Shown here one piece after another: positions 16,995 through 48,054 of a stretch of DNA of 64,000 nucleotides. A program made the translations under genes and the position numbers. This stretch comes from an uncultured delta proteobacterium (GTDB lineage Bacteria; Desulfobacterota; Binatia; UBA9968), in contig CAVSLC010000013.1 of the NCBI GenBank assembly GCA_963728565.1, positions 224,001 to 288,000 of the forward strand, written 5' to 3'. Each line of letters starts with the position of its first letter. The stretch's first letter is position 1. The notes below the pieces were generated by a model. The model saw only the letters and a list, made by a program, of their open reading frames with translations, searched no databases and was not told the DNA's origin.

Positions 16995-17024
16995 CCATAA
17001 TTGAGCGACTAGCGTCTAATCGCA

Positions 17025-17889
17025 ATGCGAAAAAGCTACTTGGATCTGATCGACAAAATTCAGGACCGTTATACCAGCCTCAGCAAGAACCACCGCAAGG
17101 TGGCCGACTATATTGCAACCGATGGCATGGCAGCATCCTTTGATTCCATCACCGAGTTATCGCAGAAAGTAGGCGTCAGTGAAGCATCACTGGTGAGGTT
17201 TGCCAAAAAGTTGGGCTATAAGGGCTACCCCAGTCTCCGCAAGGAGCTTCAAGCCGAATACAAAAAGACCTCCGGGACTGCCTCTAGACTACGGGATGCA
17301 GTCACAAGCGTCGGCGAGCGAAGCTTTCCCGAATCAATGTTTCAACATGACATAGACTTGATCAAGGAGACGCAATTTGAGCTTAACGAAGGCCTCAGTT
17401 ACTCAAGCGGTCAGAATGATTGTCGGTGCCAAAAAGATCTTTATCATCGGTTTTCGCGCGGCTTTCGCATTAGCCTACTTTTTACAGTTCCGCTTGCTAC
17501 GTATTGGTTTGGATGCTCGCCTGATTACAGTTACAGGCGGCACATCTCTTGTCGAGCACTTGGCGCAGCTTAGGAAAGGCGACCTTGTCATAGCTTTGGG
17601 TTTTGACGAGACGCCAAAAGAAACAAGGATCACGATTGATTTCGCCATACAGCAGCAGATTCCGGTGTTAGGCATAAGTCACACGCCGACTTCCGAGATC
17701 GCCCGGTCATCGACGCTCTGCCTACTAGGGCGCCGCCAGCCACATAAAACTCAGTCTCTCGCCGCTTCGATGTCACTGCTGAACGTCCTGGCAATTGCTG
17801 TGGCGGCTCGGAACAAACGCCAAGCTCTTCGTCAGCTACAAAGGCTAGATACAATTGAGCAGCAGTATTTGAAGGAAGCAAAAACGTAG
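17025..17889 (+). CDS. MurR/RpiR-family transcriptional regulator (HTH + SIS), frameshift near 17390
   Basis: SITELSQKVGVSEASLVRFAKKLGYKGY HTH in ORF 17025-17573; SIS domain in ORF 17377-17889. Confidence 0.87.
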
Positions 17890-19152: not shown

Positions 19153-19244
19153 TGGCGGAGAGGGTGGGATTTGAACCCACGTTACCCTTTCGGGTAAACT
19201 TGATTTCGAGTCAAGCGCCTTCAGCCGGGCTCGGCCACCTCTCC
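19153..19244 (-). tRNA. tRNA-Ser(CGA)
   Basis: GGAGAGG acceptor stem, anticodon loop CT-CGA-AA, long variable arm, GGTTCAAATCC T-loop, encoded CCA. Confidence 0.96.
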
Positions 19245-25655: not shown

Positions 25656-26843
25656 TTACCGGTGCAAGGCCACAAAGGCAAAAACCTTTGCTGCATTGAA
25701 AACGTCGTTGAGCGACACCAGGTCGTGATCGGTATGCTGGAAGCGAATATCGCGGGAGCCATAATTGATCGCTTGAATGCCGCGAAAATTGAATAGGCCG
25801 GTGTCGTTGGCTGCGGTGGAAAAGGTATATTGCGGCTCGTAGTTTAGGACTGTTCGGATGCCGTGCTCGAGGGCGCGCACCACCTCGGCATCCTTGCCGA
25901 CTTCGCTCGGGTACATGAAATCCTTCGGCTGAACCTCAATCTCATACGGTTCAATTATGCCGATGGCGTCAATCATCTGCTGCACAGCTCTTTTGGGATC
26001 GTCGCCGGGAAGAAGCCGGCGATCAAACATGATGCGGCACTCGCTCTGGATCGTATGGGTGGCTTTGGGAAAACTCTCGATCGAATTGGCCGCGAGACTC
26101 ACCTTTCCTAATGAACCGTGATTTCTGGCTTCCGGATAGGGCATTAACGGTTTGAGCCTGTCCAAGTACCTTCATCGCGCCTTCGATGGCGTTGATGCCC
26201 TCCCACGGACGGCTACTGTGGCTCTGTTTGCCGCGCACGATCACCAGCACATCAATACGGCCTTTATTGCCAAGTTGGATTTCGGGAGGGCCGTCGATGA
26301 TGCACCAGTCCGCTTCGACCCGGCCATGATCCAGAACATAAGCCAGCGAATCGTGCCGTCCAGTTTCGCCGGCGGTACTGACAATCAGATAGAGATCCGA
26401 AGGAAGCTCGATTTTGCTGGCGCCAAGAAAGCGAATGGCCGCGATCATCGCGGCAAGACTCCCCTTCTGCTCACACGCTCCCCGGCCCCACACGCACTCG
26501 CCATTCAATTTGTAGGGCGCGCCATCGACGATCTCTCCTGAATAAGGGTTTGGCATCGTACTCGGCGCCGCATTCATCGCGTAACCCACAAGCATGAGAC
26601 GGTCATTTCGCGTCCTTCCTTTGATGTGCAGGATGAGATTTCCCATGCCATCGATGACGGCCGTAAACCGGCTTGTTCCAGCTCCGGCTTGACGATGTCG
26701 CGGATCAGCGCAAGGACCTGCGGCTCTGCTTCGAGAAGCGCGGTTTGCGGGCTGGCGTGCCGCACCAGTTTTACAGCAAGCCGCTTCACCTCATCGTAAG
26801 ACAGGTTCTTCTCGATCAATTTTTTCGCGGTATCCGCATCCAT
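25656..26843 (-). CDS. M20/ArgE-like metallopeptidase/deacylase, two frameshifts (~26650, ~26160)
   Basis: GNLI, VWGRGACEQKG, GKQSHSSRPWEGINAI, FDRRLLPG, HTDHD across ORFs 26574-26945, 26023-26646 and 25656-26165. Confidence 0.82.
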
Positions 26844-26898
26844 CCGCTCATTCCATTTGTTTTGCTTTGAAAGGCCTTCAGTACCTTGCCGACTTCTT

Positions 26899-28669
26899 TC
26901 AATGTCCTTCAAATTGGCCGCCGACCCTGCCGATCTTTCGCGCAATCACGATGAGCGTGACACAAACCATACTGATGATCAGAGCCAGAGAACACATCGG
27001 CCCGAGATTGCCGTCGACGTAAAAATGATACAGCAGCGGCCCGAGAGGCTCCGAGCCCGGCGAATAGAGGAACACGGAAGCGCTGAACTCGCGCAGAAAA
27101 ATCGTTGCGAGAATTATCCAGCCGGCGAGAAAGCCGGGACGAAGCAGCGGCAGCAGAATGCGTCGAAAGGTCGTCATGAAGCTGGCGCCGCAAGCCATCG
27201 AAGCCTGCGGCAGATCGTCGTGCAGCTGAACAATCGTGCTGGTCATCGTGCGCAAGCCGTACGGCAAGAATCGGGTGATATAGGCGATCATGAGGATCCA
27301 CAAAGTCCCGTATATGGGCAGCGGCATATAGACATAGGTCCAGAGCAGGCCAATGGCCAGCGCTGTTCCGGGGAAGGCCCACGGTATGAACGTCAACGCT
27401 TCGATCACGCCGCGCCCGGCGGTCCGGCTTTTCGTCGTCACCCAGGCGGTCAATGACGCGATCAGCATGCACAACGTCGCGCCGCCTACCGCGAGAAAAA
27501 TACTATTTTGAAACGCCCGGTAAGTTCGCGTATCACCGAAATTGGACCGATAGTTATCCAGGGTTAACAGCTCCCAGGTCTTGGCGCTCGGCACATGAAC
27601 ATAGGAGACGAAAGAAACGTAGATCATTACAAGAAGCGGTAAAACGACGATCAGTATGAGGATCAAACCGGCGAGCACCGATGCGCCGTAAGCGCCATTT
27701 TCCGAGATCGATGATGGTTGGCCGGTAGCCGCGTCCGGTGACCGTAACGTAGCGTTCCGAGCGCATCGTGAGACGGCGATAGAAGTAGACGAAAAGCATT
27801 GTGATAATCAGCAGCGAGACCGCATACGCCGCCGCCAGATTCTGGTTCGGCGGGAACGCGCCCACCGCCTCGCGGTAGATCTTGGTGGTGAACACTTCGA
27901 TGCGTGCCGGCAGGGCTATAATCGCCGGCGTATCGAAGCTCTCGATAGCGCGAACAAAATTGAGCATCGTTGCCGCCAGCAACGCCGGACGAATGATCGG
28001 AAATGTAATCCGCCGGGCGGTTTGCATATTCGTCGATCCAGCGACGCGCGCCGATTCCTCCAGCGACGGATCCATGGAATAGAGCGACGCTGAGATCAGC
28101 AAAAACGCCAACGGCGTCGTGATCAATGCTTCGACGTACACCATGCCCCAGATCGAGTACACATTTAACGGCGCGTCGGCGAGACCGAATACGTCCATCA
28201 GCACGCGGTTGATCAGACCCGTGCGCGGACTCAGCAGAACGGTCCACGATACCGCCAGCATAACGGGCGGAAAGACGTTCGGCACAATCGCCGTCAGCTC
28301 AAAAACTCTTCTGAACGGCGCATTGGTGCGTATCGAAATCCATGCCAGGGTGGCTGCCAGCACGGTCGAAAGTATGGCCGAACCGCTGGCAAATACAAAT
28401 GAGTTCAAAAGCAGCTGATAGGTCTGCGCATCCGTGTAGGCGCCAATATAGTGGCCGAGAGTGAAGTCGCCCGGCACGCCCAACGGTGTGCTGCGGAAGC
28501 TGCCGTAGAACAGCATCAGGGTGGGTGACAAGCTCAGGTAAGCGATGACGATCCCGACTACCATAACCACCCCGAGCTCCGGATTTTTCCGAAAAGCGCG
28601 GAGGGGCCGATCCAAGAGCCGACTCCGAGTTGAGGAATCTGTTAAGGCGTTACCTTTGACGGTACTCAT
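26899..28669 (-). CDS. FbpB-like ABC permease (two fused domains), frameshift near 27690
   Basis: MDPSLEESARVAG and LHDDLPQASMACGA EAA loops; PWAFPG. Confidence 0.87.
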
Positions 28670-30043: not shown

Positions 30044-31028
30044 TTAGGCGACTATCGCCGAAGCCATGCGGACAACGCTTTTTCTCATTGCTTGGGTGCC
30101 CATAGGTAATAGAACCGGCAGATTCAGGCCCGCTTTGACAAATCCCTCCAACTGTTTGCCGCATTGTGCCGTAGTCCCGGCTACAGAGTGGGCAAAAACC
30201 ACCTCGTCGGCGATATATTTCTTCGCCCCATCCCAATCTCGCCTGCCCACCGCTGCGGCCAATCCCTCCTGGTCGACTTTGCCGCCGCCGAGCCGAATGT
30301 TCTCGGCGTGGTGAGTGTTGCGAAAGATATATGCGAGAAAAAGCTTGTTGGCGTCGATAGCCTCACGCGGATTCTCTGAAACTGCCGCAGTGATAAAACC
30401 CGCTACATCGACCTGGTTGACCGATTTGCCGGCTTTCGCCGCGCCGCATCGGATTTCGGTAATGCACCGCGTGATATATGCCGGAGAGCACCCGCCCGAA
30501 AGCAAGACGCCATCGCCGATTTCACCCGCCAGCTGAAGCATTCGAGGCCGCACCGCAGTGACATACATTGGAATTGCCGTCGACGGCACCAACCCCATCT
30601 TTGGACCGTTCAGCCGAAACATCTCGCCTTTATAATCAACCGAATCTCCCTTCAACAATCGACGAAGGATGTCGACGTATTCACGCATCGTTTTCAAAGG
30701 GCGGGGCGACTCGATGCCGGCTTCTTTCAGTGCGGCGGCATTTCCAGTTCCCGGGCTGGCAATCACCCTCCCTGGCGCAAATTCCTCCATCGTAGCCAGC
30801 GACATGGCGGAGATGATCGGCGCGCGCGAATATGGACTCACCGGCGCGGGCGCGACCTTGATCCGTTGAGTCGAGGCGAGCAGAGCCATCGAGGTCGTTA
30901 GCGAATCTCTGAAAGCAGAGATGGTCGGACATCCAAAGCGACTCCATGCTAGCCTCATCGGCGAGCCGGGCGAGTTCGATCATCTCCTGAATTGAATAGA
31001 ATCCGTCAAAGCATAAGCCCAACCGCAT
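30044..31028 (-). CDS. LLM-class (luciferase-like) flavin/F420-dependent oxidoreductase, frameshift near 30910
   Basis: MRLGLCF...SLWMSDH, STQRIKV, PRMLQLAGEIGDGV. Confidence 0.85.
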
Positions 31029-31105
31029 AAAGCCACCTTCCCTTTTTAGAGCCTTCATAAGTTCGCATGCCTCGTGTCATTGCTTCGGATTATCGGTTAG
31101 AACTG

Positions 31106-32216
31106 CTAAAACCCATTCTGCAAAATAACCGGCACGGTTTCCGCCGTGATATGCGCAAGCCCGATTTTTTCTAAAGTTAAACCTTCTCTTGAGTAATCGA
31201 TTCCATTAGCCACTGAAGCCAGCCTGATCAACGAGTTCATCACCGGAGTTACAATACCAAAGAGCCGGCCAATTTCGGCCATCGGCACCAAGCCGTATCC
31301 AACGTCTTCATGAAGGTAACGGTGATCAAGGCACGCCGGGGACTTGATCTTGAAGTTAGGCTCACTTTCATGAATCGCGCGATAAATGGAACCGCTGGCC
31401 CGTGCTTCAGCCGAAGTCAGCCCAGCTTGATAAAAGATATCGATGAAAGGTGTCGGCTTTAAGCCCGAGGCTCTTAACAATCTGCAAGCGCTCCTTATCG
31501 ACCTCTTCAATCCACGCCGCGATCGCCGGGGTTACTCCTTCGCGGTAATACAGAAAATTACCAGCGGTGTTTTCGATCCAACCCACGTTGCCGAGCATTC
31601 CCGCCGGATGCATGATGGCGTTGATGTTCGACAAACCCGTTTCAAGCACGTTCTGAGCAACTGTAACATTGGGGTAAATACTCTGAATTTCGCCGATCAA
31701 ATCGTCGGTGTTCGCTGCGGGAAAAGCGGCGCAGCGCAGATTCGTTGTGCGCCGATAGATTTCCACGTGGGCCGGTTTCACCATGCGGCAAATATAGGTC
31801 AGGGTCACAGTCTCGCAAAGTCTGACAGTGGCTTTATTACCGCACCGTCGCAGAATGTTGGCAAAATGCAGCGAGCCTCCAGTATGGCCGGGATTTAAGA
31901 GAATACGATTGGCCGTCTCTGTAAATGTGCTGCCATGCTTTGCGCCAGATATTCATGCGCAACCGCCGGCGCTGCAACAATAATCAGGTCCACGCCTTCG
32001 ATAACCGGGACAATATGCGGGCTGTGAAAATAGGGAGCGGCAAACTTTTCCTCGCCGGCCTCTGAAAGCGTGATACCACCCTGCTTGATAATCGGCAGCA
32101 GGGTCGCATCGGACCGGGAAAATAGCCGAACTTCGTAGCCGCGCAAGCGTCAAATCAGCCGCCGCTGCGCACCCGCCATTGCCTGCGCCCAGGACGGCGA
32201 TTTTACGAATTGCCAT
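31106..32216 (-). CDS. NAD(P)-dependent opine (octopine/nopaline) dehydrogenase family, three frameshifts (~32147, ~31900, ~31455)
   Basis: IAVLGAGNGG Rossmann motif, ETVTLTYICR, LSNINAIMHP, HRYLHEDVGYGLVP. Confidence 0.85.
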
Positions 32217-32304
32217 ACGTCACGAATGTGCTTGAGGCACGAATATTCTAAGAACTTAGACCAGGAAATGTCTAAAATTACTCGAGCTCGTTGGAATCTG
32301 CTAA

Positions 32305-34580: not shown

Positions 34581-34797
34581 AAATAGCGCTGTGAATGCTT
34601 CAAGAAACCTGACTAATTAAATGCCATGAATGTCCCGGAGAATAGCTGCTGTGATTTGGACCGTCAAGGAGAGCAGCCGAACGCTCAGCGTTGATTTGAT
34701 ATTCTGGGCTGGCAGAAAAAAGGCTGCACAGCTTTCCACGCGCTATCTTCAAATGCGAGCTATCGACGGTAACTGCGAGCAGCTAGGTTTTAGAGTG

Positions 34798-35916
34798 TTA
34801 GCAAAAGCCGGCAAAATGATCGAAAGAAACTTTTCTGTCCGCCACCGCTGACCCAACGGCCTGGAGATCGGCAATATACTCGATGGAGTCAAGTTGCTGC
34901 ACGTTCTTGGGCTCGACATCCGGAAGTCCGAGACCATCCAGCCCGTGCCGCGTCAACTCGGCATTGTACCGCAGATAGGTAAAAAGCCTTGGTTGGACAG
35001 GGCCTCTCGTGCCGATCATATTGCCGACTTCGCGATCCAGCGGATCTCCGGCCAGGCATTTACCAAATACTCTGCATAGAAAATCCTGCTCGTTCAGCGC
35101 CGCTGCCATTAATGCCGAGGGTATCGAGCTGGCGTTGTAAAGCACGTTCATTTCATCCGGCCGCAGGTCGGCGTTTGCGTCCGGGCTCGTTCCGGTCCCA
35201 ACCGATACAACGAGCAGATTATCTTCGCCCACCGGCCAGTTCAGATTAAACGCTTCCACCGTAGCCATCAGGAAGGCCTGGAACGCCGGGTTGTTGTACA
35301 TCGTGATACCGCCATCGACAAAGATGAATTCCTTCTGTCCGACCCGCACCACTTCGGGCGGAAAATAGGTTGGCGCGGCGGTACTGGCCCGAACCAACTG
35401 CCACAGCGGCAAATTCAGGTTGCAATCCGCGCGCGCGCAATCGTTGTATTTGGCGCGTGGATTATTCGATATCGGCCAAGGTGAATCGGTCGAAGCGTTG
35501 CGCATGACCATCATCAGCAACCCGTCGATCTTTTCACTCCCCAGGGTGGTATCGGCGCCAAACTCCTGGCGCAGCCGGGCAGAGAGTTTTTGATCTTCGA
35601 ATTTATGCCGGTAGTAGCGATTCAGTAATGACGCTTTATCGAACATCTCCCGGCCGTTTTGCAGGTAAAAGTCACGAATACGATCGATGCTCATTCGCCA
35701 GGAGAGACAGGCGGCAATGATCGCGCCGGTGCTGGTGCCGGCAAAAAAATCGAAATAATCCGCCAGCACAAAATCGTTGCCCCGCCCTAAATTGTGTCGC
35801 AGCATATGTTCTATCTTCGCCAGCACTTCCACGGTCAAAATGCCGCGAATGCCGCCGCCGTCCAGCGCTAATATTTTCTTTGGTCCTATGGCTTTGATTT
35901 TATCCGCCAAACTCAT
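34798..35916 (-). CDS. Patatin-like phospholipase
   Basis: LALDGGGIRG oxyanion motif, GTSTG nucleophile, ASTAAPTYF, FVDGG catalytic Asp. Confidence 0.93.
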   Translation of the reverse strand: MSLADKIKAIGPKKILALDGGGIRGILTVEVLAKIEHMLRHNLGRGNDFVLADYFDFFAGTSTGAIIAACLSWRMSIDRIRDFYLQNGREMFDKASLLNRYYRHKFEDQKLSARLRQEFGADTTLGSEKIDGLLMMVMRNASTDSPWPISNNPRAKYNDCARADCNLNLPLWQLVRASTAAPTYFPPEVVRVGQKEFIFVDGGITMYNNPAFQAFLMATVEAFNLNWPVGEDNLLVVSVGTGTSPDANADLRPDEMNVLYNASSIPSALMAAALNEQDFLCRVFGKCLAGDPLDREVGNMIGTRGPVQPRLFTYLRYNAELTRHGLDGLGLPDVEPKNVQQLDSIEYIADLQAVGSAVADRKVSFDHFAGFC

Positions 35917-35929
35917 TGCCGATCTCCCA

Positions 35930-37896
35930 TCACCACAAAGTCGTTGTGTCGATCACATAAACCCTGCCTGAATACTTCTGCACGGTCTCAAACATATGCT
36001 GGGTGCCGCCGGGGCCATCGCCGCCGCTGCGGTTCCAAAGACAAACAAAGCGCACCTTCTCTGGCCCCCATGCCAGCGAAGTGTAAAGCTGCCAAAGGTT
36101 TAGCCGCGCGAACGGGTTTGCTGCCGCGGGTAGCGGTCCTAGCACTTCGGGCATCACCAACGTTGTGGTATTTGGATGAGCTTTAACTTTGAAGTAGCGT
36201 TCCGTCCAGTTGCCCGGAGCGAAGGAGACCGACTTCCGCAAAAACGTCGGCTCGTCCAAGGCTAATCGTAATTCGAGTTTGACTCCGCGCTGAAGGGCAG
36301 CTTCGGCAAACAACAGGTCGCCGCCGCATGCGCCGCCGCAGAGAGCCAGGTCCGCCGCCCCCGCGTCCAACTTTTCCAGGGTAGCCGCTATCGCCGCCGC
36401 GGCGATTTTCTCTTTATCGGCAGGAAATCGCGGCTCGGGCCGGTCCGGAGCATCGATCATATGACCGCTGAATAGCAAAACCTGTCGTGGCGCCCAGGTC
36501 TTATCTGGCGGATTGAGCCGGCTTAACGCGCGATCGAGAACCGCCAGTGCAGCTTCAACTTCCTCCGGACGAAAACCCAAAAGTCCCAGCAGCTCGAGCT
36601 GCTGGCGTGATGAATTGAGTTTGAACCAATCCTTATCAGCTACCGCGACGGCGTTCTTGTATGCCGCATCGACCGCTGGCTTCGTCCCCACCAAAACTTC
36701 CAATTCGGCTAAGCTGATGCGCGCCCAGTAATCTTTGGGATTTCTCTCCAGCGCGCCACGGATCGCCCAGCGCACGCCGCCTTCCATTTCCGTGCGCAGC
36801 ACATCGGCTTTCAGCTCATCGGCCGACAGGTGAGCCAACAAATGCAGCAAGGTCACGGCATTGATTCCTGAGTAGTAGTGCGCCGGATCTTTGCGGAATC
36901 CGGTGGAGTATGCGTTGATCGCTTCGCATAGGGTTGCGCTTTCGCTCTCAGCTTCCCGGCGCATATCGACGACAGAGCTTCCGTCGCTGCTTCCAGCAAT
37001 CCACCCACGCGTCTTTTTCCACGCGCCCGCGCATCGCCCAACTCTCGGCATCTTGAGGGAATTCATCGATCAAATCTTCGATGCACTCTTTGGCATCGTC
37101 ATGCTTTTTTAGCCGGCCGAGTAATAGGCACTTCTGCCGGCGACTCTCTAAATCTCTAGGTCGGATCGCCAGCGCCTCTTCATACTGTGCCAGAGCCAAC
37201 TTGAATTGGCCCACTGAAAGCAGCGCCCGGCCGGCCTTCTGGAGTGCCTCAAGGTGAAAAACGCGAGTAGGCGCCTCGCCGGCTAGAACAAGAATATCGC
37301 CAGGACGATTGCCTCTCCTGGCTATGTCGATCCGGTCCGCCCATCCTTCATATTGTTCCCAAAACTCTTTGGCTTCTTCGACCCGGAGAGACTTCCAATC
37401 AGGCTCGTCCAAATAGCGTAGCAGATGATAGACTGGACTCACCTTGCGTCCATACCAGGCATTGATCGTATGAATAGCGACCTCGGCTAAATTTTTCTTG
37501 TCATCCTCGAGGTACTGCGGATCGGGAATCGCTGCGGCCGGGGTGTTTTTGGCGATTCGGTAACGAACCGAACGTTCAGTAAGAACATCGAAGGGCGTTT
37601 GATCGCGCCGGCAGGTAATCTGAATCACGCCCCGCTTCCTGAGCGCATGGCGCACGCCAAGTTCGTACCAGACGTTGGGATTGTCAATGGACAAGTCGGC
37701 GACCACCAGATCCGCGAGCAGCAGTTCCTGGAACATATCCGTGCGGATATTGCCGGCCCGCATCTCTTCGTCGGCGCGAAATACTTCAAAGCCCGCCGCC
37801 TTCCAAAGCCGGTTTGATCAACTCACGAAATACCGCATTGAAGTCAATATCTTCCTTGATGCCAAAGGGCATCGCGACAAACGCATGGTGCGCCAT
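35930..37896 (-). CDS. Multidomain protein: nucleoside-deoxyribosyltransferase-like N-terminus, TPR/DUF4071 (ASK1/MAP3K TRAF-binding-like) region, SLOG-like C-terminus; two frameshifts (~37800, ~36980)
   Basis: AFVAMPFG, RADEE, ADLSIDNPNVWYELGVRHA; TPR helices and YYSGINAVTL; LFSGHMID..RFP, GGACGGDLLFAE, WNRSGGDGPGGT. Confidence 0.8.
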
Positions 37897-38332
37897 GTCA
37901 TTTCACCTCATCCGTGTCGGCGATCGTAGTCCAATGTCGGCCGACGCAGTGCTATCATCTTCTCCGCGCCAATCGGTCTCCCCGCCACATTAAAGCAGGC
38001 ATGTTCCGCTGGAAATTCTTCAGTTAAGATAGATACTCTCAACTACGCCGCAAGTATAGCTTTTTTGCCTGAGAAACGCCCGTGAATTCCACCAATATGA
38101 GTCACGTTGAGCTAAGCTCCAATCGCAAGAATGGGAATAAGCGGAAGGAGCCATGATTCTGTGGTCCTTCACACTGAATCGATATGCTTGTGGGCAACGG
38201 GAACATAGATCGGGTTTATCACCTGCCTCGAGAGCTATCCCGTCAAGACTGGCCGCCGAGACAGGATTTTTGCGCTTGGCTTTCTAGCAAAAAATTGCTA
38301 ACTAATTTGGATTCTCAACTTGGAGGGTTAAG

Positions 38333-38702: not shown

Positions 38703-39167
38703 CTATCGATTTTCCCCGGCCCGAGATTGTTGAATCGCCTCGACAATCGCGTCGGCTTCAAGACCCAGTTCCAGGGTCTCGATCAGGTCACTGTAACGAT
38801 CAGGATCTATGATCGCCTTCACTTCCGGCTCGAAGACGTGATACACGCCTAAACCCAATTCGACGCCACCGAGCGGCCCGGCATAGGTCGGATCGCCGCG
38901 GGTCATGGTTTCGAACTGCACGCGCGCCGCATCGACGTTGGGCGCGCCGAGTAGCACGACGAGATCATCCGCACCGTACTCTTCTGCAAGCTGTTTGACT
39001 CGACCTTGAACCTCAAGGTCCACCGCGCCGGCGGCAGTTCAAACAAAGCACTGAGTGGTCGCGTAGACTACCTCGGCACCCAGATTCTCGATAGCCTGTT
39101 CGATGGTATGGGCCGGCACGCCATCGCGTTCGCCGAGAATTGCGATTTTCTTGCCTCGAAGTTCCAT
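38703..39167 (-). CDS. grdA: Glycine/sarcosine/betaine reductase selenoprotein A (154 aa, Sec at UGA 39039-39041)
   Basis: MELRGKKIAILGERDGVP...TQCFV-U-TAAGAVDLEVQGRV...GDPTYAGPL: GrdA consensus with CxxU; frame continues across the TGA. Confidence 0.95.
39002..39020 (-). promoter_or_regulatory. SECIS-like hairpin of grdA
   Basis: GACCUUGA-GGU-UCAAGGUC perfect 8-bp stem starting 18 nt after the UGA, G-rich apical loop. Confidence 0.75.
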
Positions 39168-39209
39168 CAGTTCCCTTTCAATCCGACTTAGCTTGGAAAT
39201 TGATCCTTG

Positions 39210-39414
39210 TTATCCCTGCCGTCCAACATAATCAACATGTCATTTCATTTGTTATCACTGTCGCTCACCTCGCCAACATGCCGATTTCATCTTTATGGCT
39301 GCCGTTCCAATAGCACCGACATGCCGTTTTGGCGGGCTGTCACTGTCGCTCTCATCTCGCCAACATGCCCCATTTCATTTTTTATGGCTGCCGTTCCAAT
39401 AGCACCGACATGCC
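39210..39414. repeat. Degenerate tandem repeat including an exact duplicate of the grdC 3' end
   Basis: 34-bp exact repeat at 39292-39325 and 39381-39414 (period 89); five ~40-45 bp units each starting G(G/A)CATGT on the minus strand. Confidence 0.85.
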
Positions 39415-40827
39415 ATCGCTGAGCTGGGTCATCTGCCCCAAAAATAAACTGGCTCGGGCAAAAAGAAAACAGCGCTTGAATTGTCCCTGGGTTAGTTCTT
39501 GGACGGCATGCGGCACATAAGCCAGCGCCGAGGCGATATGGCCCTGGGTTGGCGCATAGCCGGGCAATCCCTTTTCTTTCATGAATGCCGCAAGATCGTT
39601 TTTTGCCAGCTTGCCCGCCTTGACCAGGACGGCCCCGAGCATCCGGTAATTTCGCTCCGCAACGTCGCCGCCGTTCGCCGGCAAGGTGATCTCCGGATTG
39701 TGCAATTCGGTGACAAATTTATCGATCGCCGGCACGCCCAGCTCTAGCCGGTTCAGCGGGTCGACAACCAGTGATTTCAGCTGCTGATCCAATGACGCGC
39801 CGGCCGATACCGGATGACGGCCGACGCCGGCCAGATTGATAATCGGGCTTTTGCCGTCATCCCGGCCAACCCAGACCGCAACTGCCGCCTGCATGTCTTC
39901 CAACACCGGAATGTTTTTTTCAAGATGGTAGAGAAACTTCATGCCGAGCTTGGGCAGAGACGATCCACCGACAACAATGATATTTTCCGCGACACCGCTT
40001 TGCACGAGCGCGGCGGCGGTGACCATCGCCGGAATCGGCGCGGCGCAAAAATCTTTAACATCGAAACCGGAAGCCATCTCACAACCGGAAAACTCGGCGA
40101 TCGCTTTGGCTAAATTGCCGCCGCCGCGCTGATAACGGTCGCCGACGGCCTCTTCCGAACAGCCCAATACAAAATCGACCTCTTGCTTCTTCAGGCCCGG
40201 GTTTCCGGCAAAGATTTCCTCAAGCGACAAAGCCGCCGAGACCTTGCCGCAGAGATTCTCCAACAACACCGTCGCAGATAGCGACTCATCTTCGTGATGC
40301 CCGTTGGCGATCCAGCCCACCGGTTCGAGCTCACTGCCAATAAACAGCTGCAGGCCGTCACCTTGAGCGATGATCGACTTCAGCTTGTTTGAGTCCATAA
40401 GATTCGGAGCAGTCGTTGCAAGCGATCTGCAAACGGTCGATTGCTGCAGAGGCGCGGCAATCTCATCCCAGAAACGGTCGAGCAAGGCAACATGTTTGAA
40501 CGGATCCGCCAGCGCGAGCAGAGCGAGAAAGAGTTTTTCGTCGACGATGCTGCCGAAGGTTTTTCGCTCCTCGGTGAGTATCGCATGCTCTCCGAACCAC
40601 GGTCGGCTGACTAACCATAGTTTCTCAGGCGCTTGTTGACCGATGAAAACCTCATTGGGCAAGTAGCCCTGCGCTTGCTGAAAGGACCTAAGACTTCGGT
40701 TCAAGTCCGCGAGACGCGCCGGATTGGCGGCAATTTCCCGTTGCGGTTTTGACCCATACCGTGTCAGACCCGGGGTATGGATCAGGACGCTGCAGGCTGC
40801 TTTTATCACAGGTGAAAAATTCGACAT
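39382..40827 (-). CDS. grdC: Glycine reductase complex component C beta subunit (FabH/thiolase-like fold)
   Basis: HTPGLTRYGSKP, LLENLCGK, CSEEAVGDRYQRGGGNLAKAIAE, FCAAP, KLGMK, ELHNPEIT, PGYAPTQGHI. Confidence 0.92.
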   Translation of the reverse strand: MSNFSPVIKAACSVLIHTPGLTRYGSKPQREIAANPARLADLNRSLRSFQQAQGYLPNEVFIGQQAPEKLWLVSRPWFGEHAILTEERKTFGSIVDEKLFLALLALADPFKHVALLDRFWDEIAAPLQQSTVCRSLATTAPNLMDSNKLKSIIAQGDGLQLFIGSELEPVGWIANGHHEDESLSATVLLENLCGKVSAALSLEEIFAGNPGLKKQEVDFVLGCSEEAVGDRYQRGGGNLAKAIAEFSGCEMASGFDVKDFCAAPIPAMVTAAALVQSGVAENIIVVGGSSLPKLGMKFLYHLEKNIPVLEDMQAAVAVWVGRDDGKSPIINLAGVGRHPVSAGASLDQQLKSLVVDPLNRLELGVPAIDKFVTELHNPEITLPANGGDVAERNYRMLGAVLVKAGKLAKNDLAAFMKEKGLPGYAPTQGHIASALAYVPHAVQELTQGQFKRCFLFARASLFLGQMTQLSDGMSVLLERQP

Positions 40828-40954
40828 AGCTGCTCTTCAGGATGTATAAAGTATGAGGCTGCCGATCAAGAGGCGAGCCCGCAGAAGAACGTTAAGAGAC
40901 GAAGATCGCTCTCACGATTGTTCCGGGCTAACAGCCTGGTGAAAAATGGGTCTT

Positions 40955-41084
40955 GCAAGCTGCTCAAAAAGACCTCAGAGGTAAGGCGCGCGAAGTCCGA
41001 TGAGCTGAGGCGTACGTTTCAGTACGTCGAAGCGAGTCGCGCGAGCGCAACGACACCTATGAGTCATTTTCAGCAGCTTGCTAG
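40955..41084. repeat. ~130-bp structured repeat (MITE-like), copy 1
   Basis: Terminal inverted repeats GCAAGCTGCTCAAAAAGACCTCA / TGAGTCATTTTCAGCAGCTTGC; internal CGTAC..GTACG hairpin; ends in CTAG. Confidence 0.85.
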
Positions 41085-42385
41085 TAGGCATTGCAGATCC
41101 AGCATTCCTTACCCCAATTATCGACACCGCCAATCACCATATCGCGCGCGTCAAAGGTGAGTTTTCCTTCGGCCTGCGCCACCGGCGCGCCAGGGTAGCT
41201 GAGAATCTGCACCCGGTCGTACGGGCCGACCAGACGTTGGGCTTCGGGCAGCTCCAACCAGCGGTCGCGGCTCCCAGTGCTTACCACGGCGTCGGCTTCT
41301 GGAACATAGAACAGCAGCGGCGAATCAACTCCGTCCTTGCCGCCGTACTCATAGGTTACCAGCACCGTGGCGATCCCGCGCAGTTCACACGCGCGCACCG
41401 TCAGCATCACGTCCACGAAGGCGTTACCGGAACCTAGCCAGGCCACGATCGCCCCCTGCGCACCAAGAGTCGCCGCCAGTTGCGCGGCGTTTTGGGCGAT
41501 CACTTCCTTGCCATGAAAAGTCTCGTAACGAATGCGTTGCAAAATCATACCGCTGAAATTCAAGCGCCGGCCGTGATCGCGGTAAAGCGCCAGCACCAGA
41601 GGATGATTCTGCCAATCCCAGGTAATCGGAAAATAACCGATGCCGCGGGTGGCATTGACTGCCATGGCACAGTCGAGCAACTCGTTGGGATGAACCACGG
41701 TCGAGAGCGATTCTCGTATCGGCAGACCGTAATAGCTCACACCTGAATGAACATGATGATCGTCGGTCAAACAGCCTTGAACCAAGACCACGTTCGGCAA
41801 ATCCGCATGCCTTTGGCTGAGATCGAAAACCTCTACGTTCTCGGCCTCAATGCCGATGGTCGTCTCGGCAACACGGCGGGCAACTTGGAACTCAGCGGTT
41901 TGAATTGCCGTGTGCGCATCGAGTTCCGAAAGCCCATCGCGCAGCTTCATGATCAACACCAGATGCGAAAGGCCGCCAAATTTTGACGCCGCCGCGCCCG
42001 CTCCCCATGTATCGAGGAGGGCGCTTCGCTGCACGCCCAGTCCGGCTCTAACGGTTCCCTCGTACGCCGCCGTCGCGATCACAGCCATGCCGGATAAGCG
42101 ATGGGTGCGACCGGCGCCGACCGCTTCCACCGGTCCGAGTATCCCGGGAAACACCTGACCGTTGCCGCTAACTTTCACCCGGGGCTCAACGATGTCGCGA
42201 ATACCGGTGATGCGCACCTTGTCGCCAGGACAAACCACAGCCAAGGATGCTTCGGCGATTCGCCCGTCACGCAGGATTATTTCCTCCAGCGCAGGTTGAT
42301 CGATCGCGAGCGTTCCGGCGCGGTATTCAAATGTCCGGCCCAGACGGATCTCTTTGACCGGGTAATCAGCCAGTTCGAGTCGCAT
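41081..42385 (-). CDS. Glycine/sarcosine/betaine reductase component B GrdE/GrdI-like subunit, paralogue 1
   Basis: MRLEL, PGDKVRI..IRDIVEPRVKV, FPG, HPNELLD, QNHP, GSGN, EYGGKDG; collinear with GrdE. Confidence 0.9.
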   Translation of the reverse strand: MRLELADYPVKEIRLGRTFEYRAGTLAIDQPALEEIILRDGRIAEASLAVVCPGDKVRITGIRDIVEPRVKVSGNGQVFPGILGPVEAVGAGRTHRLSGMAVIATAAYEGTVRAGLGVQRSALLDTWGAGAAASKFGGLSHLVLIMKLRDGLSELDAHTAIQTAEFQVARRVAETTIGIEAENVEVFDLSQRHADLPNVVLVQGCLTDDHHVHSGVSYYGLPIRESLSTVVHPNELLDCAMAVNATRGIGYFPITWDWQNHPLVLALYRDHGRRLNFSGMILQRIRYETFHGKEVIAQNAAQLAATLGAQGAIVAWLGSGNAFVDVMLTVRACELRGIATVLVTYEYGGKDGVDSPLLFYVPEADAVVSTGSRDRWLELPEAQRLVGPYDRVQILSYPGAPVAQAEGKLTFDARDMVIGGVDNWGKECWICNAY

Positions 42386-42391
42386 GCTTGC

Positions 42392-43732
42392 TTACCCGCT
42401 CACCGCCATATTCGGGGTAAATAGCGTCGGTCCCGTGACTTCGGATTCCAGCGCTTTCAACGCGGTCTGAACGATCTCGCGCCGCAGCCGCGCATCGAGA
42501 TCTTGCGGCAGGCTCGGATCGCCGCAAGGATGAGGTATGCTGACGCCTTTAACGATCCGGTTGGCCCGTACCTGCTCCGCCACCGGATACATCGCGCTTA
42601 CCAAGGCTACCGGAAGTCCCGCCTTCTCGAGTTCTTTGCTCATCACAGCGCCGCTGCGACTACAAGTCCCTCACGTGGCGACAAAGAGCACGCCCTCGAC
42701 ATTGTCCTTCTTCAGATCGGCGGCAATTTCCTGGCCGACGCGGCGCATCACCGCGGGGGAGCCCTGATTGCCTGGAATAACGTAATACGCCGGATACAGT
42801 TTGCCGGCGCCGATCACCCCTTCCGATTCTAACGACCGAAGCGCATCCAGCGGCACGCCATAGTGCGGATTCTTGTTCATGTAGGCGACATTATAGCCGC
42901 CGTGAACAGCTTCCCATTTTCCCGGTTCAAGCTCTTTGAGCTCGGCAATGTTGTATTTACGCCAGTGGGTGTTGCGGTAGGTTTTGAACCGATCCGGATT
43001 GCCCCAGGGAACGACGCCGCTGGTGGTGATGACGGCAATGTTGCGGGCTTTTAAATTATCGAGAGGCGGAGCCGGCGCGATATCGTCCCAGGCCTCCATC
43101 GGCACTTCAGTAGTGAAGGGCTCATGATTGATCTTTTTCAGCAACATATCGATGGCGCGATCGGCGCCGCTCCGATCAGTTTTTTCCAAACGCCGGATAC
43201 CGCGGCTCAAGTAACCTTCCTGCAACGCCGGCCCGATGGTCTCGCCTCGAGCCAGGCGAGAGACAAATTTCGCCACCGCCTTGAGCGCATCGGTCATGCC
43301 GGCGGCGGTCTCTGTTGTCGGTAAACAGAAAACCCGAGGATCGGCCAGGTCGCGATAAGTGCCGATGGCTGGATTTTCTTCGTGCATTGCGGTGACGCAG
43401 GGAATTTCCAATGTCGTGGCAACGGCGTGACAAATCTCGATGCAGCTCATGCCGTAACGTCCGGAATTAAACGCCGGACCGGCGACTAGCGCTTGCGCTC
43501 CCTGAGAGCGAACCGCTTCGAGGATTGCCTTGAGGGCTTCCTCACTATGATCGTGAAAGTAGTTGTCCCCATAATAGATCGTGCATGCGACCTTGGTGTC
43601 AGCGCCGAGCTGTGACTGCAGCCCGCGCGCCGCGCCGGCGGCCTCTTCGATCATGCCGACAGACATGCCCGCCTTCTCTTCGCCTCCAAACCCGGCAAAG
43701 AACTGATTAACGACATGGACGATTGTGGTCAT
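42392..43732 (-). CDS. grdB: Glycine/betaine reductase-type selenoprotein B (446 aa, Sec at UGA 42671-42673)
   Basis: VHVVNQFFAGFGGEEKA, AGPAFNSGRYG, TTSGVVPWGNPD, HGGY, then VAT-U-GTCSRSGAVMSKELEKAG...IPHPCGDP; ORFs 42671-43732 and 42392-42646 are in the same frame. Confidence 0.95.
42642..42660 (-). promoter_or_regulatory. SECIS-like hairpin of grdB
   Basis: GUCGCAGC-GGC-GCUGUGAU 8-bp stem (two G-U pairs) starting 10 nt after the UGA. Confidence 0.7.
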
Positions 43733-43857
43733 CAGGAAATCCTCCTTTGCAACGACCCGTTAAATAGAAGCACCCTATCATCTTTCGCGTATTCATCGAT
43801 AGCCGCGGCCGCGGCCGAAAGGCTGGCTCCTTCGCTCCAGTTACGGGATTATCTCTT

Positions 43858-43987
43858 GCAAGATGCTCAAAAAGACCTCAAAGGCAAGGCGCGCGAAGTT
43901 CGATGAGCTGAGGCGTACGCTTCAGTACGTTGAAGCGAGTCGTGCGAGCGCAACGACGCGTATGAGTCTTTTTCAGCATCTTGCTAG
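43858..43987. repeat. ~130-bp structured repeat (MITE-like), copy 2
   Basis: GCAAGATGCTCAAAAAGACCTCA / TGAGTCTTTTTCAGCATCTTGC; near-identical to copy 1; ends in CTAG. Confidence 0.85.
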
Positions 43988-45291
43988 TAATCCCTGCATA
44001 CCCATCCCTGCTCGCCCCAAATATCGGCTCCACCGATGATCACATCCCTTCCCTCCAGCGACAGAGCACCGCGGGCTGGACTCGCAGGCACGCCCGGATA
44101 GGATAATACTTTGATCTCGTCGTACGGACCGAGTACTTTGTCCATCGCCGGGAGCTCGACGCCGCGATCCAAGCTGCCGGTCGTGACCACGCCATCGGCT
44201 TCCGGCAAATAGAAAAGCAGCGGGCTATCGCGGCCTTCCTTGCCGCCATGTTCATAGGTCACCAACACCGTTTTGATTCCATTACGCTCGCACGCCTGCA
44301 CCGTCAGCATGACATCGACGAAAGCATTGCCGCCGCCGATCCAGGTCAGCAGCGCTCCGTCGGCGCGAAACATTTTCGCCAGCCGCGCAGCATTCTGCGC
44401 GCCGACTTCTTTCCCGTGCGCAGTCTCGAAACGGATGCGCTGCAAAATCACGCCGGCAAAGTTGAGATCTCTTCCATGGGCTTCGTACAGGCGCAGCACC
44501 AGCGGATGATTCTGCCAGTCCCACGTAGTTGGATAGTATCCGCGGCCTGAACGAGTGGTGTCCACGGTGATCGCGCCGTCAAAGAGCTCATTGGGATGGA
44601 GGAAGGTCGCCATCGATTGGCGCAGCGACAGGCCATAGTAGCCAACTCCCGAGTGAACATGCTGCGGATCGGTAATACAGCCTTGGACCAGCATCACTCT
44701 GGGCAAGCCGGGAGTTTCCGCGCTCAGATCGAAGCGGCGAACCGATTCAGGCGAGAGTCCAACCGTTACTTGCGCCAGCCGTCGGGCGACTTTGTATTCG
44801 GCCAATTGAATCGCGGTATGCGCATCCAATTCTCCCAGGCCAGAGGCGAGGCGAAAGCTCACCACCAGATGCGCGTGCGCGCTGAAGCGCGAGATCTCTG
44901 CTGCGGCTCCCGTCATATCTAAAATGGCGCTGCGCTGCACGGTGGTGCCGGCGCGGATGGTGCCTTCGTACGCTGCCGCCGCAATCACCGTCATTCCTGA
45001 AAGCCGGTGCGTCGTCCCCTCTCCCACATCGGCCACCGGCCCGAGAACGCCAGGAAAGACCTGGCCGTTTCCCGAAACCTTATAGCGCGGCTCGACGATA
45101 TCGCGAATGCCGGTGATGCGGGTTTTCTCCCCGGGCATGGCCGCGGTGAGCGAAACGTTAGTAATGCGCGGATCCTGGAGCACCAGATCCACCAGTTCGG
45201 CTTCGTCCATATCCAATGTGCCGTTCCGGTAGGCGAAACGCCCTCCCAGGCGTAAATGCTTGACCGGAAATTCGGCGACATCGAGTTTCAT
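43984..45291 (-). CDS. GrdE/GrdI-like component B subunit, paralogue 2
   Basis: IRDIVEPRYKV, HPNELFDGAI, WDWQNHP, GGGNAFVDV. Confidence 0.9.
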   Translation of the reverse strand: MKLDVAEFPVKHLRLGGRFAYRNGTLDMDEAELVDLVLQDPRITNVSLTAAMPGEKTRITGIRDIVEPRYKVSGNGQVFPGVLGPVADVGEGTTHRLSGMTVIAAAAYEGTIRAGTTVQRSAILDMTGAAAEISRFSAHAHLVVSFRLASGLGELDAHTAIQLAEYKVARRLAQVTVGLSPESVRRFDLSAETPGLPRVMLVQGCITDPQHVHSGVGYYGLSLRQSMATFLHPNELFDGAITVDTTRSGRGYYPTTWDWQNHPLVLRLYEAHGRDLNFAGVILQRIRFETAHGKEVGAQNAARLAKMFRADGALLTWIGGGNAFVDVMLTVQACERNGIKTVLVTYEHGGKEGRDSPLLFYLPEADGVVTTGSLDRGVELPAMDKVLGPYDEIKVLSYPGVPASPARGALSLEGRDVIIGGADIWGEQGWVCRDY

Positions 45292-45322
45292 AATCTAGCG
45301 TGAATAGTTCACCAACGAAAGA

Positions 45323-45501
45323 CGATCAAGGGGCGAACCCTCCGGAACGAAGGCGATGGGCCTTTGCCTTGAGGCGGCCTGCGAACTGAAGTTCGGGAGC
45401 AAGCGCCTGGGAAATAATTTGACTTCACCGCCAAACACCATAAAATTATTTGAAGCTGTTCAGCTCCGCGCCTTCGCTCCTCCGAATTCTCCCCTTGATC
45501 G
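45323..45501. repeat. Long intergenic foldback
   Basis: CGATCAAGGGG / CCCCTTGATCG, CGAAGGCG / CGCCTTCG, AAATAATTT / AAATTATTT inverted pairs. Confidence 0.6.
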
Positions 45502-45529
45502 ACACCCTTGTCGTGAGCGTACCAGCCCC

Positions 45530-46603
45530 CTATCGCGCACCGACTAGCTTGGCAAATTCTTCGACGTAGGCTTTGAGATTAGGCCCGAGCTTGGGAGTTA
45601 CCACGTAGTCAGGCTGGAGTTGAAATTCCTGGAATTTGCTGCGCACTCCCTTCATCGCAACCCCTTTCCCGAGTTTGCCTGCCAACACTGTTTGCCCCTC
45701 TTCCGATAGTACCCAATCGGCGAAAAGCAATGCCGCATGCGGGTGCGGCGAGTTCCTGGCGAGAAACAGGCCCTCGGGCTTTACGATCTTCGGCGCCAAT
45801 ACTTTGAATCCCAACGGCGCTCCCTTGTCGCGGATGGCCGCGGAGGTTTCGCCATTGATAGCGATGCCGATGGGATACTCGCCTGAACTCACCACCTGAG
45901 TGGTCAAAGCGCCGCCGCGCCTGAAGCTGAGATCCTGCTTGCGCAGCTTCGTCAGATAGTCCACCGATTTCTCCCGTCCCCATGCCTGCTCCATCGCTGC
46001 CAGAATGTAGCCGGCTTCAGGGTCGAACAGCAGTTTGCCTTTCCACGACGGATCGAGAAGCGCGTCATAAGTTTGCGGCACCGACTCGGCCTTGACCAAA
46101 GTTGTGTTGTAAACCAACGCGGTGGTCAAATAATACATGCTATGCCACGAGCCGCTCGGATCGTAGGTGCCATCATAGAATCGCTCCCGAGCGGCCATGG
46201 CGTAAGAATGGACTAAATTGTCATTGATAAGCTGGTAGCCGTAGCTCGAATCGACCTGGATCGCGTCCACGGCATGGCTGCCGGCGCGCGCCTCGGTGAG
46301 CGAGCGGTTAAGGATTCCCTCGCGTGGCGCGTAGTAGTGTTTTAGATTCAAGAATGGATAGCGCGCATTGAAAGCCTTGCCGAGTTCGCTAAATTCATTG
46401 ACCAAAATAGTTCCGTAATAAACCAGCTCGCCTTCCTTTTGAGCTCCCTTGACGAGAAAATTTTGTTTGTCCTGAGGATTTAGCATGCTGACTTTCGCCG
46501 TCACCTCTGACATAGTCGCTGCGCCGCTAGTGTCTGCCATAAGAATGAACAGTAATGATTGGCATAGCGTTAAAACTCCGAGGCCCTTTATCATTTTACG
46601 CAC
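45530..46603 (-). CDS. ABC substrate-binding protein, Fe3+/thiamine-like family
   Basis: GAQKEGELVYY, YNTTLV, LLDPSWKGK, SPHPHAALLFADW. Confidence 0.87.
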   Translation of the reverse strand: MRKMIKGLGVLTLCQSLLFILMADTSGAATMSEVTAKVSMLNPQDKQNFLVKGAQKEGELVYYGTILVNEFSELGKAFNARYPFLNLKHYYAPREGILNRSLTEARAGSHAVDAIQVDSSYGYQLINDNLVHSYAMAARERFYDGTYDPSGSWHSMYYLTTALVYNTTLVKAESVPQTYDALLDPSWKGKLLFDPEAGYILAAMEQAWGREKSVDYLTKLRKQDLSFRRGGALTTQVVSSGEYPIGIAINGETSAAIRDKGAPLGFKVLAPKIVKPEGLFLARNSPHPHAALLFADWVLSEEGQTVLAGKLGKGVAMKGVRSKFQEFQLQPDYVVTPKLGPNLKAYVEEFAKLVGAR

Positions 46604-46745
46604 CGTCGTACCTGCCTTTCACTCGCCTAATATCATCGAACCAGTATCATTCAAATTGATTCTTAGATGCTTCAACCAAATCCGCAGGAATGGATACTGT
46701 TTGCTCCCCGCTTGATGCTTGCGTCGGTTGAACTGCAGTAAGCGA

Positions 46746-48050: not shown

Positions 48051-48054
48051 CGGT

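Follow-up and report, generated by a model that had tools for sequence, protein, structure and literature searches.

A pair of adjacent genes on the minus strand of a 64,000-nucleotide stretch of DNA from an uncultured member of the Binatia (contig CAVSLC010000013.1, positions 224,001 to 288,000; hereafter the window, within which positions are counted) is described here. The upstream gene, referred to as the hub gene, has 654 codons (37896..35933) and encodes an N-terminal N-glycosidase-like domain, a helical TPR-S block and a C-terminal SLOG domain; the downstream gene (34798..35916) encodes a patatin-like phospholipase of 372 amino acids (aa). The pair most likely represents a widespread and modular conflict cassette related to the Thoeris systems. 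A previous interpretation made from the letters of this DNA (the sequence-only reading) had proposed a three-part sensor protein of ~655 aa, restored by repair of two frameshifts, and 13 nucleotides (nt) further on an intact patatin effector. After removal of two single-base insertions the protein has 654 aa, the gap is exactly 13 nt, the patatin open reading frame (ORF) is unbroken, and all the motifs quoted were found (FVAMPF, NPNVWYELG, FSGH, GGACGGD and GGDGPGGT in the hub protein; DGGG, GTSTG and DGG in the patatin). The three-part architecture was also borne out, the TPR-S block by Pfam, and the N-terminal and SLOG parts, which score below threshold in Pfam, by fold prediction and conserved motifs.

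In the sequence as deposited, the hub gene is divided among three frames. Codons 1-33 (MAHHAFVAMPFG...LEG), in the first frame, lie at 37798..37896 and agree in 33/33 codons with the related locus L002. The second frame (36987..37796, codons 34-303) completes the N-glycosidase-like domain and encodes the first half of the TPR-S block, and the third frame (35930..36985) carries codons 304-654 and the stop codon TGA at 35930-35932. The first break is a single extra G at 37797, where the window reads GGCGGCGGGC, L002 and a second related locus, L001, read GGC-GCGGGC, and the homologous proteins read LEGAGFEVF; the second is a single extra C at 36986, where the window reads CAGCGACGG against CAG-GACGG in L002 and L001 and WKQDG in the homologues. 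Both extra bases are private to the window and are given for the minus strand. The break positions were set by alignment to intact homologues and by a three-way DNA alignment with L001 and L002, which are 95-96% identical. With the extra bases set aside, the three pieces add up to 33 + 270 + 351 = 654 codons, equal in length to the best homologue (P0002), and intact hub homologues of 652-654 aa are abundant.

Between the hub stop codon and the patatin start codon lies the 13-nt spacer TGGGAGATCGGCA (35917..35929, minus strand), which contains a GGGAG Shine-Dalgarno-like motif and implies that the two genes are co-transcribed. The patatin gene begins with ATG directly after this spacer and ends with TAA at 34798-34800. 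A weak promoter-like site is present ~120 nt upstream of the hub start (38015..38042, minus strand), and a weak terminator-like hairpin with a T-run ~57 nt past the patatin stop (34726..34741, minus strand); the counts of such sites do not exceed those of shuffled sequences (4 versus 2.7 +/- 1.7 for promoters, 6 versus 4.9 +/- 2.6 for terminators). Scans with Rfam and for tRNAs revealed no RNA element close to the pair.

The two hub frameshifts are most likely errors of assembly or consensus, as judged from the pattern of insertions and substitutions. In the 14.3-kb three-way alignment, all 6 coding indels private to the window are +1 insertions (two in the hub gene, three in an octopine dehydrogenase (DH)-like gene and one in a luciferase-like gene, the four outside the hub gene being at 32146, 31922, 31906 and 30911), with no deletion, larger event or stop-creating substitution, and every window break that could be checked against relatives is of the same kind. 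Genes unrelated to the pair are split as well: an OmpR/PhoB-type response regulator (window 137-1037, plus strand), an RpiR regulator (17013-17886, plus), an M20 peptidase (25659-26945, minus), the luciferase-like oxidoreductase (30047-31076, minus) and the octopine-DH-like gene with at least three breaks (31109-32219, minus). L001 carries single-base insertions of its own, and in L002 all nine genes are intact. The dN/dS ratios relative to L002 and L001 (0.13-0.14 for the hub gene, 0.12 for the patatin gene) indicate purifying selection, and the window branch, with 18 synonymous and 7 conservative non-synonymous changes, resembles those of L001 (22/11) and L002 (26/10), whose hub genes are both intact. 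The insertion-only spectrum across unrelated genes, together with the lack of relaxed selection, points to consensus errors, and the system is therefore probably intact in the organism. That the frameshifts are real, so that the hub gene was inactivated recently and is now a pseudogene in a dead module of which only the patatin ORF is left, we regard as unlikely; it would account for two frame breaks in a gene that both close relatives keep whole, and the octopine-DH-like gene, broken in the window and at other sites in L001, makes some local decay conceivable, but the evidence just given stands against it. Programmed frameshifting was also considered. One four-base step, TTGA (TTGATC at 37821 and 37073, minus strand), spans both overlaps, because it swallows the TGA stop of the next frame upstream of the overlap. 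The real breaks lie 24 and 87 nt downstream of these steps and are not slippery, which rules this candidate out and leaves the TTGA steps as a coincidence.

Domains of the hub protein and the patatin

The hub protein was modelled with AlphaFold2 (AF2) on the intact homologue P0002 with 63 relatives. The model (pLDDT 91.2, pTM 0.87) contains an alpha/beta domain from residue 1 to ~150, an all-helical region at 176-458 and a second alpha/beta domain at 472-654. The N-terminal domain (residues 1-150, 37446..37896, minus strand) resembles TIR domains and nucleoside 2-deoxyribosyltransferases (NDT), with elements in the order beta-alpha-beta-alpha-beta-alpha-beta and with Glu78 of NPNVWYELG encoded at 37662-37664. 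Two residues, Y77 and R82, do not vary among 63 full-length hub homologues, and conservation is at least 90% for E78, N72, N74 and D62; M9-P10, N72-P73-N74 and E78 fall in the range of 90-100%. PADLOC reports a weak match of the second-frame piece to a TIR effector model (1.8e-5, residues 17-87 of that piece). In a protein-atlas embedding the domain lies near NDT-named clusters (0.91) and near an ASK cluster with DRHyd-ASK (0.84), values that serve as leads only.

The most informative comparison is offered by BcTpr of Bacillus cereus (glycosidase 1-189, TPR 190-415). According to a preprint (bioRxiv 10.1101/2023.05.26.542521), the substrate-contacting residues of its MilB-like glycosidase are I10, M11, N80, P81, N82 and E86, and the substitutions N82A and E86A abolish NAD+ depletion, formation of a cyclic ADP-ribose (cADPR) isomer and phage defence. 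When these published residues were compared, I10-M11, N80-P81-N82 and E86 corresponded to A8-M9-P10, N72-P73-N74 and E78 of the hub protein, with identical NPNxxxE spacing. The hub N-terminal domain is thus likely an enzyme, since it keeps a motif that is reported as essential in BcTpr, and the earlier NDT-like assignment appears reasonable in light of this spacing and of the 90-100% conservation. The hub protein is, on this analogy, probably an enzyme (a maker of signal or an effector that degrades NAD or nucleotides) as well as a receiver. Calling it a "sensor", as the sequence-only reading did, was too narrow, for the domain looks more like an active enzyme than a passive sensor.

The helical block (residues 176-458, 36521..37370, minus strand) is of the TPR-S / MAP3K_TRAF_bd type. 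Pfam TPR-S (PF20308) matches both large hub pieces (38.8 and 31.1 bits; cut-off 27.6), and MAP3K_TRAF_bd (PF13281) matches the third-frame piece at 24.6 bits, barely over its cut-off of 24.1; the latter family is among the precomputed Pfam domains of most hub homologues listed. Foldseek searches of the Protein Data Bank (PDB) with the full-length model returned mostly generic TPR proteins; the chain 8qgy_A of animal ASK1 (E 2.6e-5, 494 columns) had the highest query TM-score among the full-length matches listed, 0.29. A full-length profile search of PDB sequences was swamped by TPR designs and OGT, with ASK1 outside the top 60, and a single-sequence search gave TPR matches only. The proposed tie to the ASK1 regulatory region is thereby upheld by the MAP3K_TRAF_bd match and the rank of 8qgy_A. 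The hub protein and the regulatory region of ASK1/MAP3K5 (TBD + TPR) share MAP3K_TRAF_bd and the full-length structural match, whereas the window locus has no kinase domain, no DRHyd-ASK match was obtained and the TM-scores are low. ASK1 is not known to have a SLOG domain. One bacterial relative, P0133 (799 aa), carries a Ser/Thr kinase in place of the N-glycosidase on a TPR-S-SLOG body and comes nearest among bacterial proteins to the ASK layout of kinase plus regulatory region, with the domain order reversed. A bacterial origin of ASK signalosome components is already in print, in a paper (eLife 2021) that refers to Burroughs et al. 2015 and to Burroughs & Aravind 2020.

The C-terminal domain (residues 463-654, 35933..36508, minus strand; loops SGH..D, PRFP, GGACGGD and GDGPGGT) was modelled from the window's own last 192 residues (AF2, pLDDT 94.2). 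Its best Foldseek match is Bacillus subtilis YpsA (2nx2; E 5.8e-7, TM 0.60/0.64, 20% identity), so that the fold comparison suggested for the repaired protein came out in favour of SLOG; ShosA, DprA, the MoCo carrier protein and LOG follow. All five, YpsA included, we take to be members of the SLOG superfamily. The glycine-rich loops SGH..D, GGACGGD and GPGGT are invariant or almost so, and G477, H478, D481, R489, F490, G524, D526 and G630 are invariant among the 63 full-length homologues. The Pfam family YAcAr stays below threshold (17.4 bits versus 28.2; E <= 1 in 11 of 48 members). The modelling confirms a SLOG domain at the level of predicted fold; its placement in the named Pfam SLOG family is not supported. 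YpsA differs in being a stand-alone protein, the SLOG domain here being part of a larger one.

The patatin matches Pfam PF01734 at 89.2 bits (gathering cut-off 27.7, E 5.2e-25) and two PADLOC models of CBASS-type phospholipase effectors (6.7e-46 and 3e-38). Its motifs comprise the oxyanion motif DGGGIRG, Ser62 in GTSTG (35731-35733) and Asp201 in DGG (35314-35316), and DGGG, GTSTG and DGG occur without variation in 19 of 19 aligned partner lipases. The protein is a CapV-like, non-CBASS patatin predicted to be catalytically competent. A complex prediction between hub residues 176-654 and the patatin gave scores of 0.00 and 0.00, which are uninformative on binding either way.

Family, gene partners and genomic setting

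Among 8000 scored candidates, 3290 proteins are hub relatives at E <= 1e-3; nearly all of the 120 matches listed are 640-690 aa long and are named "TRAFs-binding domain-containing" or "DUF4071" proteins in their sources. The relatives at E <= 1e-30 include 518 representatives of 50%-identity clusters, and at least 619 stretches were confirmed in contigs of one genome per species (185,579 species genomes), in Binatia, Nitrospirota, Pseudomonadota, Acidobacteriota and other taxa. Gene neighbourhoods were surveyed at the 64 best-matching loci, a sample biased toward the query's own relatives, of which 50 had at least 1100 nt of downstream sequence. In 23 of them a patatin gene homologous to the window's is the next gene downstream on the same strand, separated by 12-226 nt, and this patatin is found elsewhere in three further loci (two farther downstream, one directly upstream); the conserved linkage on which the sequence-only reading had staked its proposal is thus observed. 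In L005 the DNA that can be aligned to the window is limited to the hub-patatin pair, which suggests that the pair moves as a unit. One 58%-identical hub gene with a downstream DUF4231 gene (L007, CAWCBK010000019.1) is found in a metagenome-assembled genome (MAG) labelled Euryarchaeota archaeon, so that either archaea have the gene too or the contig was binned wrongly.

Where the patatin is absent or accompanied, other partners adjoin the hub gene. A caspase gene lies downstream in L043, L045, L046 and L063; DUF4231/SLATT genes lie downstream in L007 and upstream in L037, L041 and L059; TIR_2 genes lie downstream in L015 and L059 and upstream in L019, L021 and L064; and a TIR gene of the CAP12 type lies upstream in L042 and L050. 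Further partners are nSTAND1-WD40 proteins (L022, L042), a WD40 protein (L025), giant DUF7379-LCAT-CHAT-TPR-S proteins (L016, L026, L031, L039), a Trypsin-TPR-S protein (L038) and a PG-binding/CHAP protein (L037); several loci have a neighbour with no Pfam match at threshold or an ordinary transporter. Twenty longer hub relatives are fused to SLATT_1 (5), ParA-like NTPases (4), AAA_35 with TIR_2 (2), cNMP-binding domains (2), TIR_2 (2) or a sigma-54 activator (1); in one a kinase and in another a patatin replaces the N-terminal domain, and two have no recognised extra domain. The patatin-TPR-S-SLOG fusion is represented by three 90%-identity clusters (P0272 and P0273, 915 aa; P0155, 889 aa), with a lipase portion that shares 53% identity with the patatin of the window. 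Such a pattern, in which the regulatory body stays the same and the killing heads and partners are exchanged, is characteristic of conflict systems.

The flanks of 20 pair-bearing loci (133 ORFs; L001, L003 and L011 were left out for near-duplicate context or for size) were scanned with PADLOC. At E <= 1e-10 there were matches for 17 of the 133 flank ORFs versus 2 of 42 window ORFs, a descriptive comparison with no matched baseline. A TIR gene stands beside the pair in 6 of the 20 loci (L006, L021, L027, L034, L050 and, with a sub-threshold and partial TIR_2 match, L019). The earlier label "cyclase-independent" holds for the window, where neither a CD-NTase nor another cyclase was found among 96 + 25 ORFs with Pfam or 42 ORFs with PADLOC, and where the Pfam scan of the same 96 + 25 ORFs found no separate TIR gene; against its wider use stand those six loci.

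Several loci deserve mention in their own right. An intact version of the pair is present in a cultured strain, Zoogloea oleivorans Buc (L051). Two Nitrospirales MAGs have a three-gene version in which a ThsB-like TIR gene (PADLOC E 4e-51) comes right after the patatin gene (L027, 9265-10389; L034, 9268-10392). In L034 the adjoining region 11718-13973 encodes QueC, TGT and a CBASS oligonucleotide cyclase (4e-96) and is a genuine defence island. In the flank scan a caspase gene follows the pair in L021, and MADS- and Brx-like genes flank it in L014. On the Rhizobium leguminosarum plasmid CP050566.1 (L066, 27708-40259), parts of the system occur as separate clustered genes: a CAP12-type TIR, a lone SLOG protein 52% identical to the hub's SLOG domain, a TPR-S protein, a SLATT/DUF4231 protein, a muramidase with a PG-binding domain, a patatin and a DUF4071 protein. 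On the Aliarcobacter cryaerophilus plasmid NZ_MK715471.1 (L065), a 424-aa relative without SLOG (MAP3K_TRAF_bd 8e-37, TPR-S 2e-26) directly follows a 223-aa protein that matches Nuc_deoxyrib_tr below threshold (1.1e-5), and the two form, by their domain matches, a ThsI-like pair with an NDT-like partner instead of a TIR.

The window's own pair lies outside any defence island. Its neighbours are metabolic, as the sequence-only reading had said, and include an M24 peptidase gene and the Grd cluster at 38706-48086 (glycine/sarcosine/betaine reductase), whose selenoprotein genes were read through with TGA as selenocysteine (U): GrdA (38706-39170, minus strand) has CFVUTAAGA with the in-frame TGA at 39039-39041, and GrdB (42395-43759, minus strand) has ATUGTC with TGA at 42671-42673. 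About 20 kb from the pair, at 58507-61250 (plus strand), a gene for a bpMoxR AAA+ ATPase (PF20030, 4.7e-60) is followed by one for a vWA protein; the two have no PADLOC match, and Pfam links this type of gene pair to MoxR-vWA-beta-propeller ternary conflict systems. A bacterial small SRP RNA (64.5 bits) and two tRNA-Ser genes (GGA, CGA) are found on the minus strand within 7985-8269 and 19153-19244, and the region 7900-13250 has few long ORFs.

Relation to known systems

Type VIII Thoeris and BcTir/BcTpr are the nearest relatives that have been tested. In a preprint of December 2025 that defines type VIII Thoeris (bioRxiv 10.64898/2025.12.03.692087), a TIR protein makes cADPR, which activates ThsI, a protein with a CMP-hydrolase domain and TPR; the SLATT effector ThsH of type VII answers the same signal; and phospholipases are counted among 29 putative types of Thoeris effector. 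ThsI was compared with the hub protein by its published description. Both have a nucleotide-hydrolase head (CMP-hydrolase/NDT-like) joined to TPR and both are placed in a nucleotide-signalled anti-phage setting, but ThsI is described without SLOG and as needing an adjacent TIR, whereas the window has a fused YpsA-like SLOG domain, no adjacent TIR and a patatin partner. SLATT genes or fusions, corresponding to ThsH in the type VII and VIII account, recur around the hub family. The BcTir/BcTpr preprint (bioRxiv 10.1101/2023.05.26.542521) differs from the ThsI account in claiming that BcTpr itself makes a cADPR isomer; BcTpr is described there without SLOG and with a catalytically dead TIR as its partner, in which it differs from the hub protein. 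The same preprint, citing Burroughs & Aravind 2020, lists 78 operons from available databases, including 29 with the core Tpr alone, 28 Tir-Tpr, 5 YspA-Tpr and 4 Patatin-Tpr.

Type I Thoeris (the TIR protein ThsB with the SIR2-SLOG protein ThsA) shares with the pair a TIR-superfamily glycosidase, a SLOG receptor and the logic of abortive infection, and ThsB-like TIR genes adjoin the pair in L027 and L034. The domains are distributed differently: in type I Thoeris SLOG is carried by the SIR2 effector and the TIR is separate, whereas here SLOG is carried by the TIR-like protein and the patatin is separate. CapV of CBASS has the lipase family and catalytic motifs in common with the patatin, and the window has no CD-NTase. 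Both preprints credit Aravind's group with the TPR-centred assemblies and with the predicted role of the TPR domain in TIR signalling. The novelty implied by the sequence-only reading was therefore overstated: the TPR-centred assemblies, the link to ASK and the combination of TIR with a CMP-hydrolase-TPR protein were already in print. The kind of system is known, and the SLOG-fused, patatin-partnered version with no adjacent TIR has been catalogued at most; since Aravind's group is already cited for the assemblies and for the ASK link, the novelty is moderate and the pair is not a new category.

Proposed mechanism, rival readings and significance

We propose, with about even confidence, that the locus is a two-gene, co-transcribed, Thoeris-like conflict module of the abortive-infection type that works through a signal derived from NAD+ or another nucleotide. 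An infection cue would act on the TPR-S block and release the N-glycosidase, which would split NAD+ (or a nucleotide) to give a product derived from ADP-ribose (ADPR). The fused SLOG domain would bind this product or, at loci with a TIR gene, one that the TIR has made, and thereby reinforce activation. Either the small molecule or its release from the hub protein would then activate the patatin, which would degrade membrane phospholipid, so that the infected cell dies before phage release. What is observed is the arrangement of domains, the conservation of catalytic and binding motifs, the pairing of the genes, the exchange of effectors and the existence of fusions; the substrate, the signal, the sensing roles, the anti-phage role and the order of events are inferred, and a coupling of SLOG to the patatin is suggested by the gene linkage and by the patatin-TPR-S-SLOG fusion.

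Several observations weigh against this proposal. In the deposited sequence the hub gene has two breaks. The Pfam matches of its N-terminal domain lie below the gathering score (TIR_2 in 23 of 48 members, best 1.1e-3, with E 0.02 for L002; Nuc_deoxyrib_tr in 8 of 48, best 0.11), no match to DRHyd-ASK (PF20309) was obtained at E <= 1 in the 48 N-terminal domains, and a profile search of PDB sequences with this domain gave only matches at E ~1, to DNPH1, in a weak alignment that pairs ADxVVA...YELG of the hub with ADVVVAEVT...YELG of DNPH1. When PADLOC was applied to the locus, as had been recommended, the patatin was recognised by the CBASS phospholipase effector models and the hub protein was covered by no PADLOC v2 model; the two matching ORFs among the window's other 42 are both generic. 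With the NCBIfam model CBASS_lipase (NF041079) the patatin scores 122.1 bits, under the equivalog cut-off of 200. The pair sits amid the metabolic genes named above and is syntenic in L001, L002 and L003 at 86-96% DNA identity, which is steadier than defence islands typically are; PADLOC recognised no defence-specific neighbour in 13 of the 20 pair-bearing loci, again with no matched baseline. No experimental work on a hub-patatin pair was found in the literature, bioRxiv supplements not being covered.

A part of this evidence is shared by a non-immune reading, in which the genes form a housekeeping or stress-signalling pair, for example for nucleotide-responsive turnover of membrane lipids, in the manner of YpsA or of ASK-type signalling. 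It agrees with the metabolic setting of the genes and with the stable synteny seen in the window's clade, as well as with the scarcity of the pair on plasmids, with matches in 4 of 72,556 plasmid records and none of them full-length; YpsA, to which the SLOG domain is structurally closest, is a regulator of cell division according to bioRxiv 10.1101/2023.05.26.542521. It is nevertheless very improbable in our view, because the set of partners (caspase, SLATT pores, TIR, muramidase/CHAP, STAND-WD40, CHAT) and the set of fusions are typical of conflict systems and because close architectural relatives are reported as phage-protective in the two preprints. A stronger rival retains the immune role and makes the hub protein a receiver-effector instead of a generator: its SLOG/TPR-S part would perceive a nucleotide made by a TIR or another enzyme, encoded beside the pair or elsewhere in the genome, its N-glycosidase head would deplete NAD+ or nucleotides, as proposed for ThsI, and the patatin would be a parallel second effector. 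The homologous architecture in type VIII Thoeris is that of an effector activated by TIR-made cADPR, and the TIR genes that flank the pair in six loci, one of them by a sub-threshold partial match, fit such an arrangement. In fused relatives a patatin or a protein kinase holds the N-terminal slot, and since these fill the same position the domain appears to be a swappable head on a TPR-S-SLOG regulator; these fusions suggest that it is an output head and not a signal generator, which speaks against the mechanism proposed above. Pulling the other way, 14 of the 20 pair loci scanned, the window's clade included, show no TIR beside the pair, the aligned DNA of L005 is the pair alone, seemingly a mobile two-gene unit, and the homologous domain of BcTpr is itself reported to make a cADPR isomer. 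We judge the receiver-effector arrangement possible, though not probable. 

The self-sufficient module that we favour can be carried one step further, to a form that we offer only as a speculation and consider rather doubtful. The hub protein would then be a one-protein Thoeris, with a TIR-like generator, a TPR-S sensor of the trigger and a SLOG receiver in a single chain, which would act autocatalytically, without a separate TIR, and would fire the patatin by means of an ADPR-derived molecule; the bacterial relatives that bear a kinase would in that case indicate that the N-terminal regulatory region of ASK1 descends from such a switch, and ASK1 may keep a vestigial site for binding or processing a nucleotide.

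If the pair alone confers immunity, TIR-type signalling by NAD+-derived molecules would extend to systems without a canonical TIR, the generator and the receiver would be fused in one protein, and the effector would be a phospholipase, a type that the Thoeris preprint, in its available part, predicts but does not count among the characterised ones. The many single-base insertions in the window mean that apparent pseudogenes there are not to be trusted as such. Because the family is large, its mechanism would annotate many genes that are now called "TRAFs-binding domain-containing protein". Few bacterial proteins correspond as closely to the regulatory region of ASK1 as the hub family does, and the question of what that region originally sensed is thereby opened to experiment.

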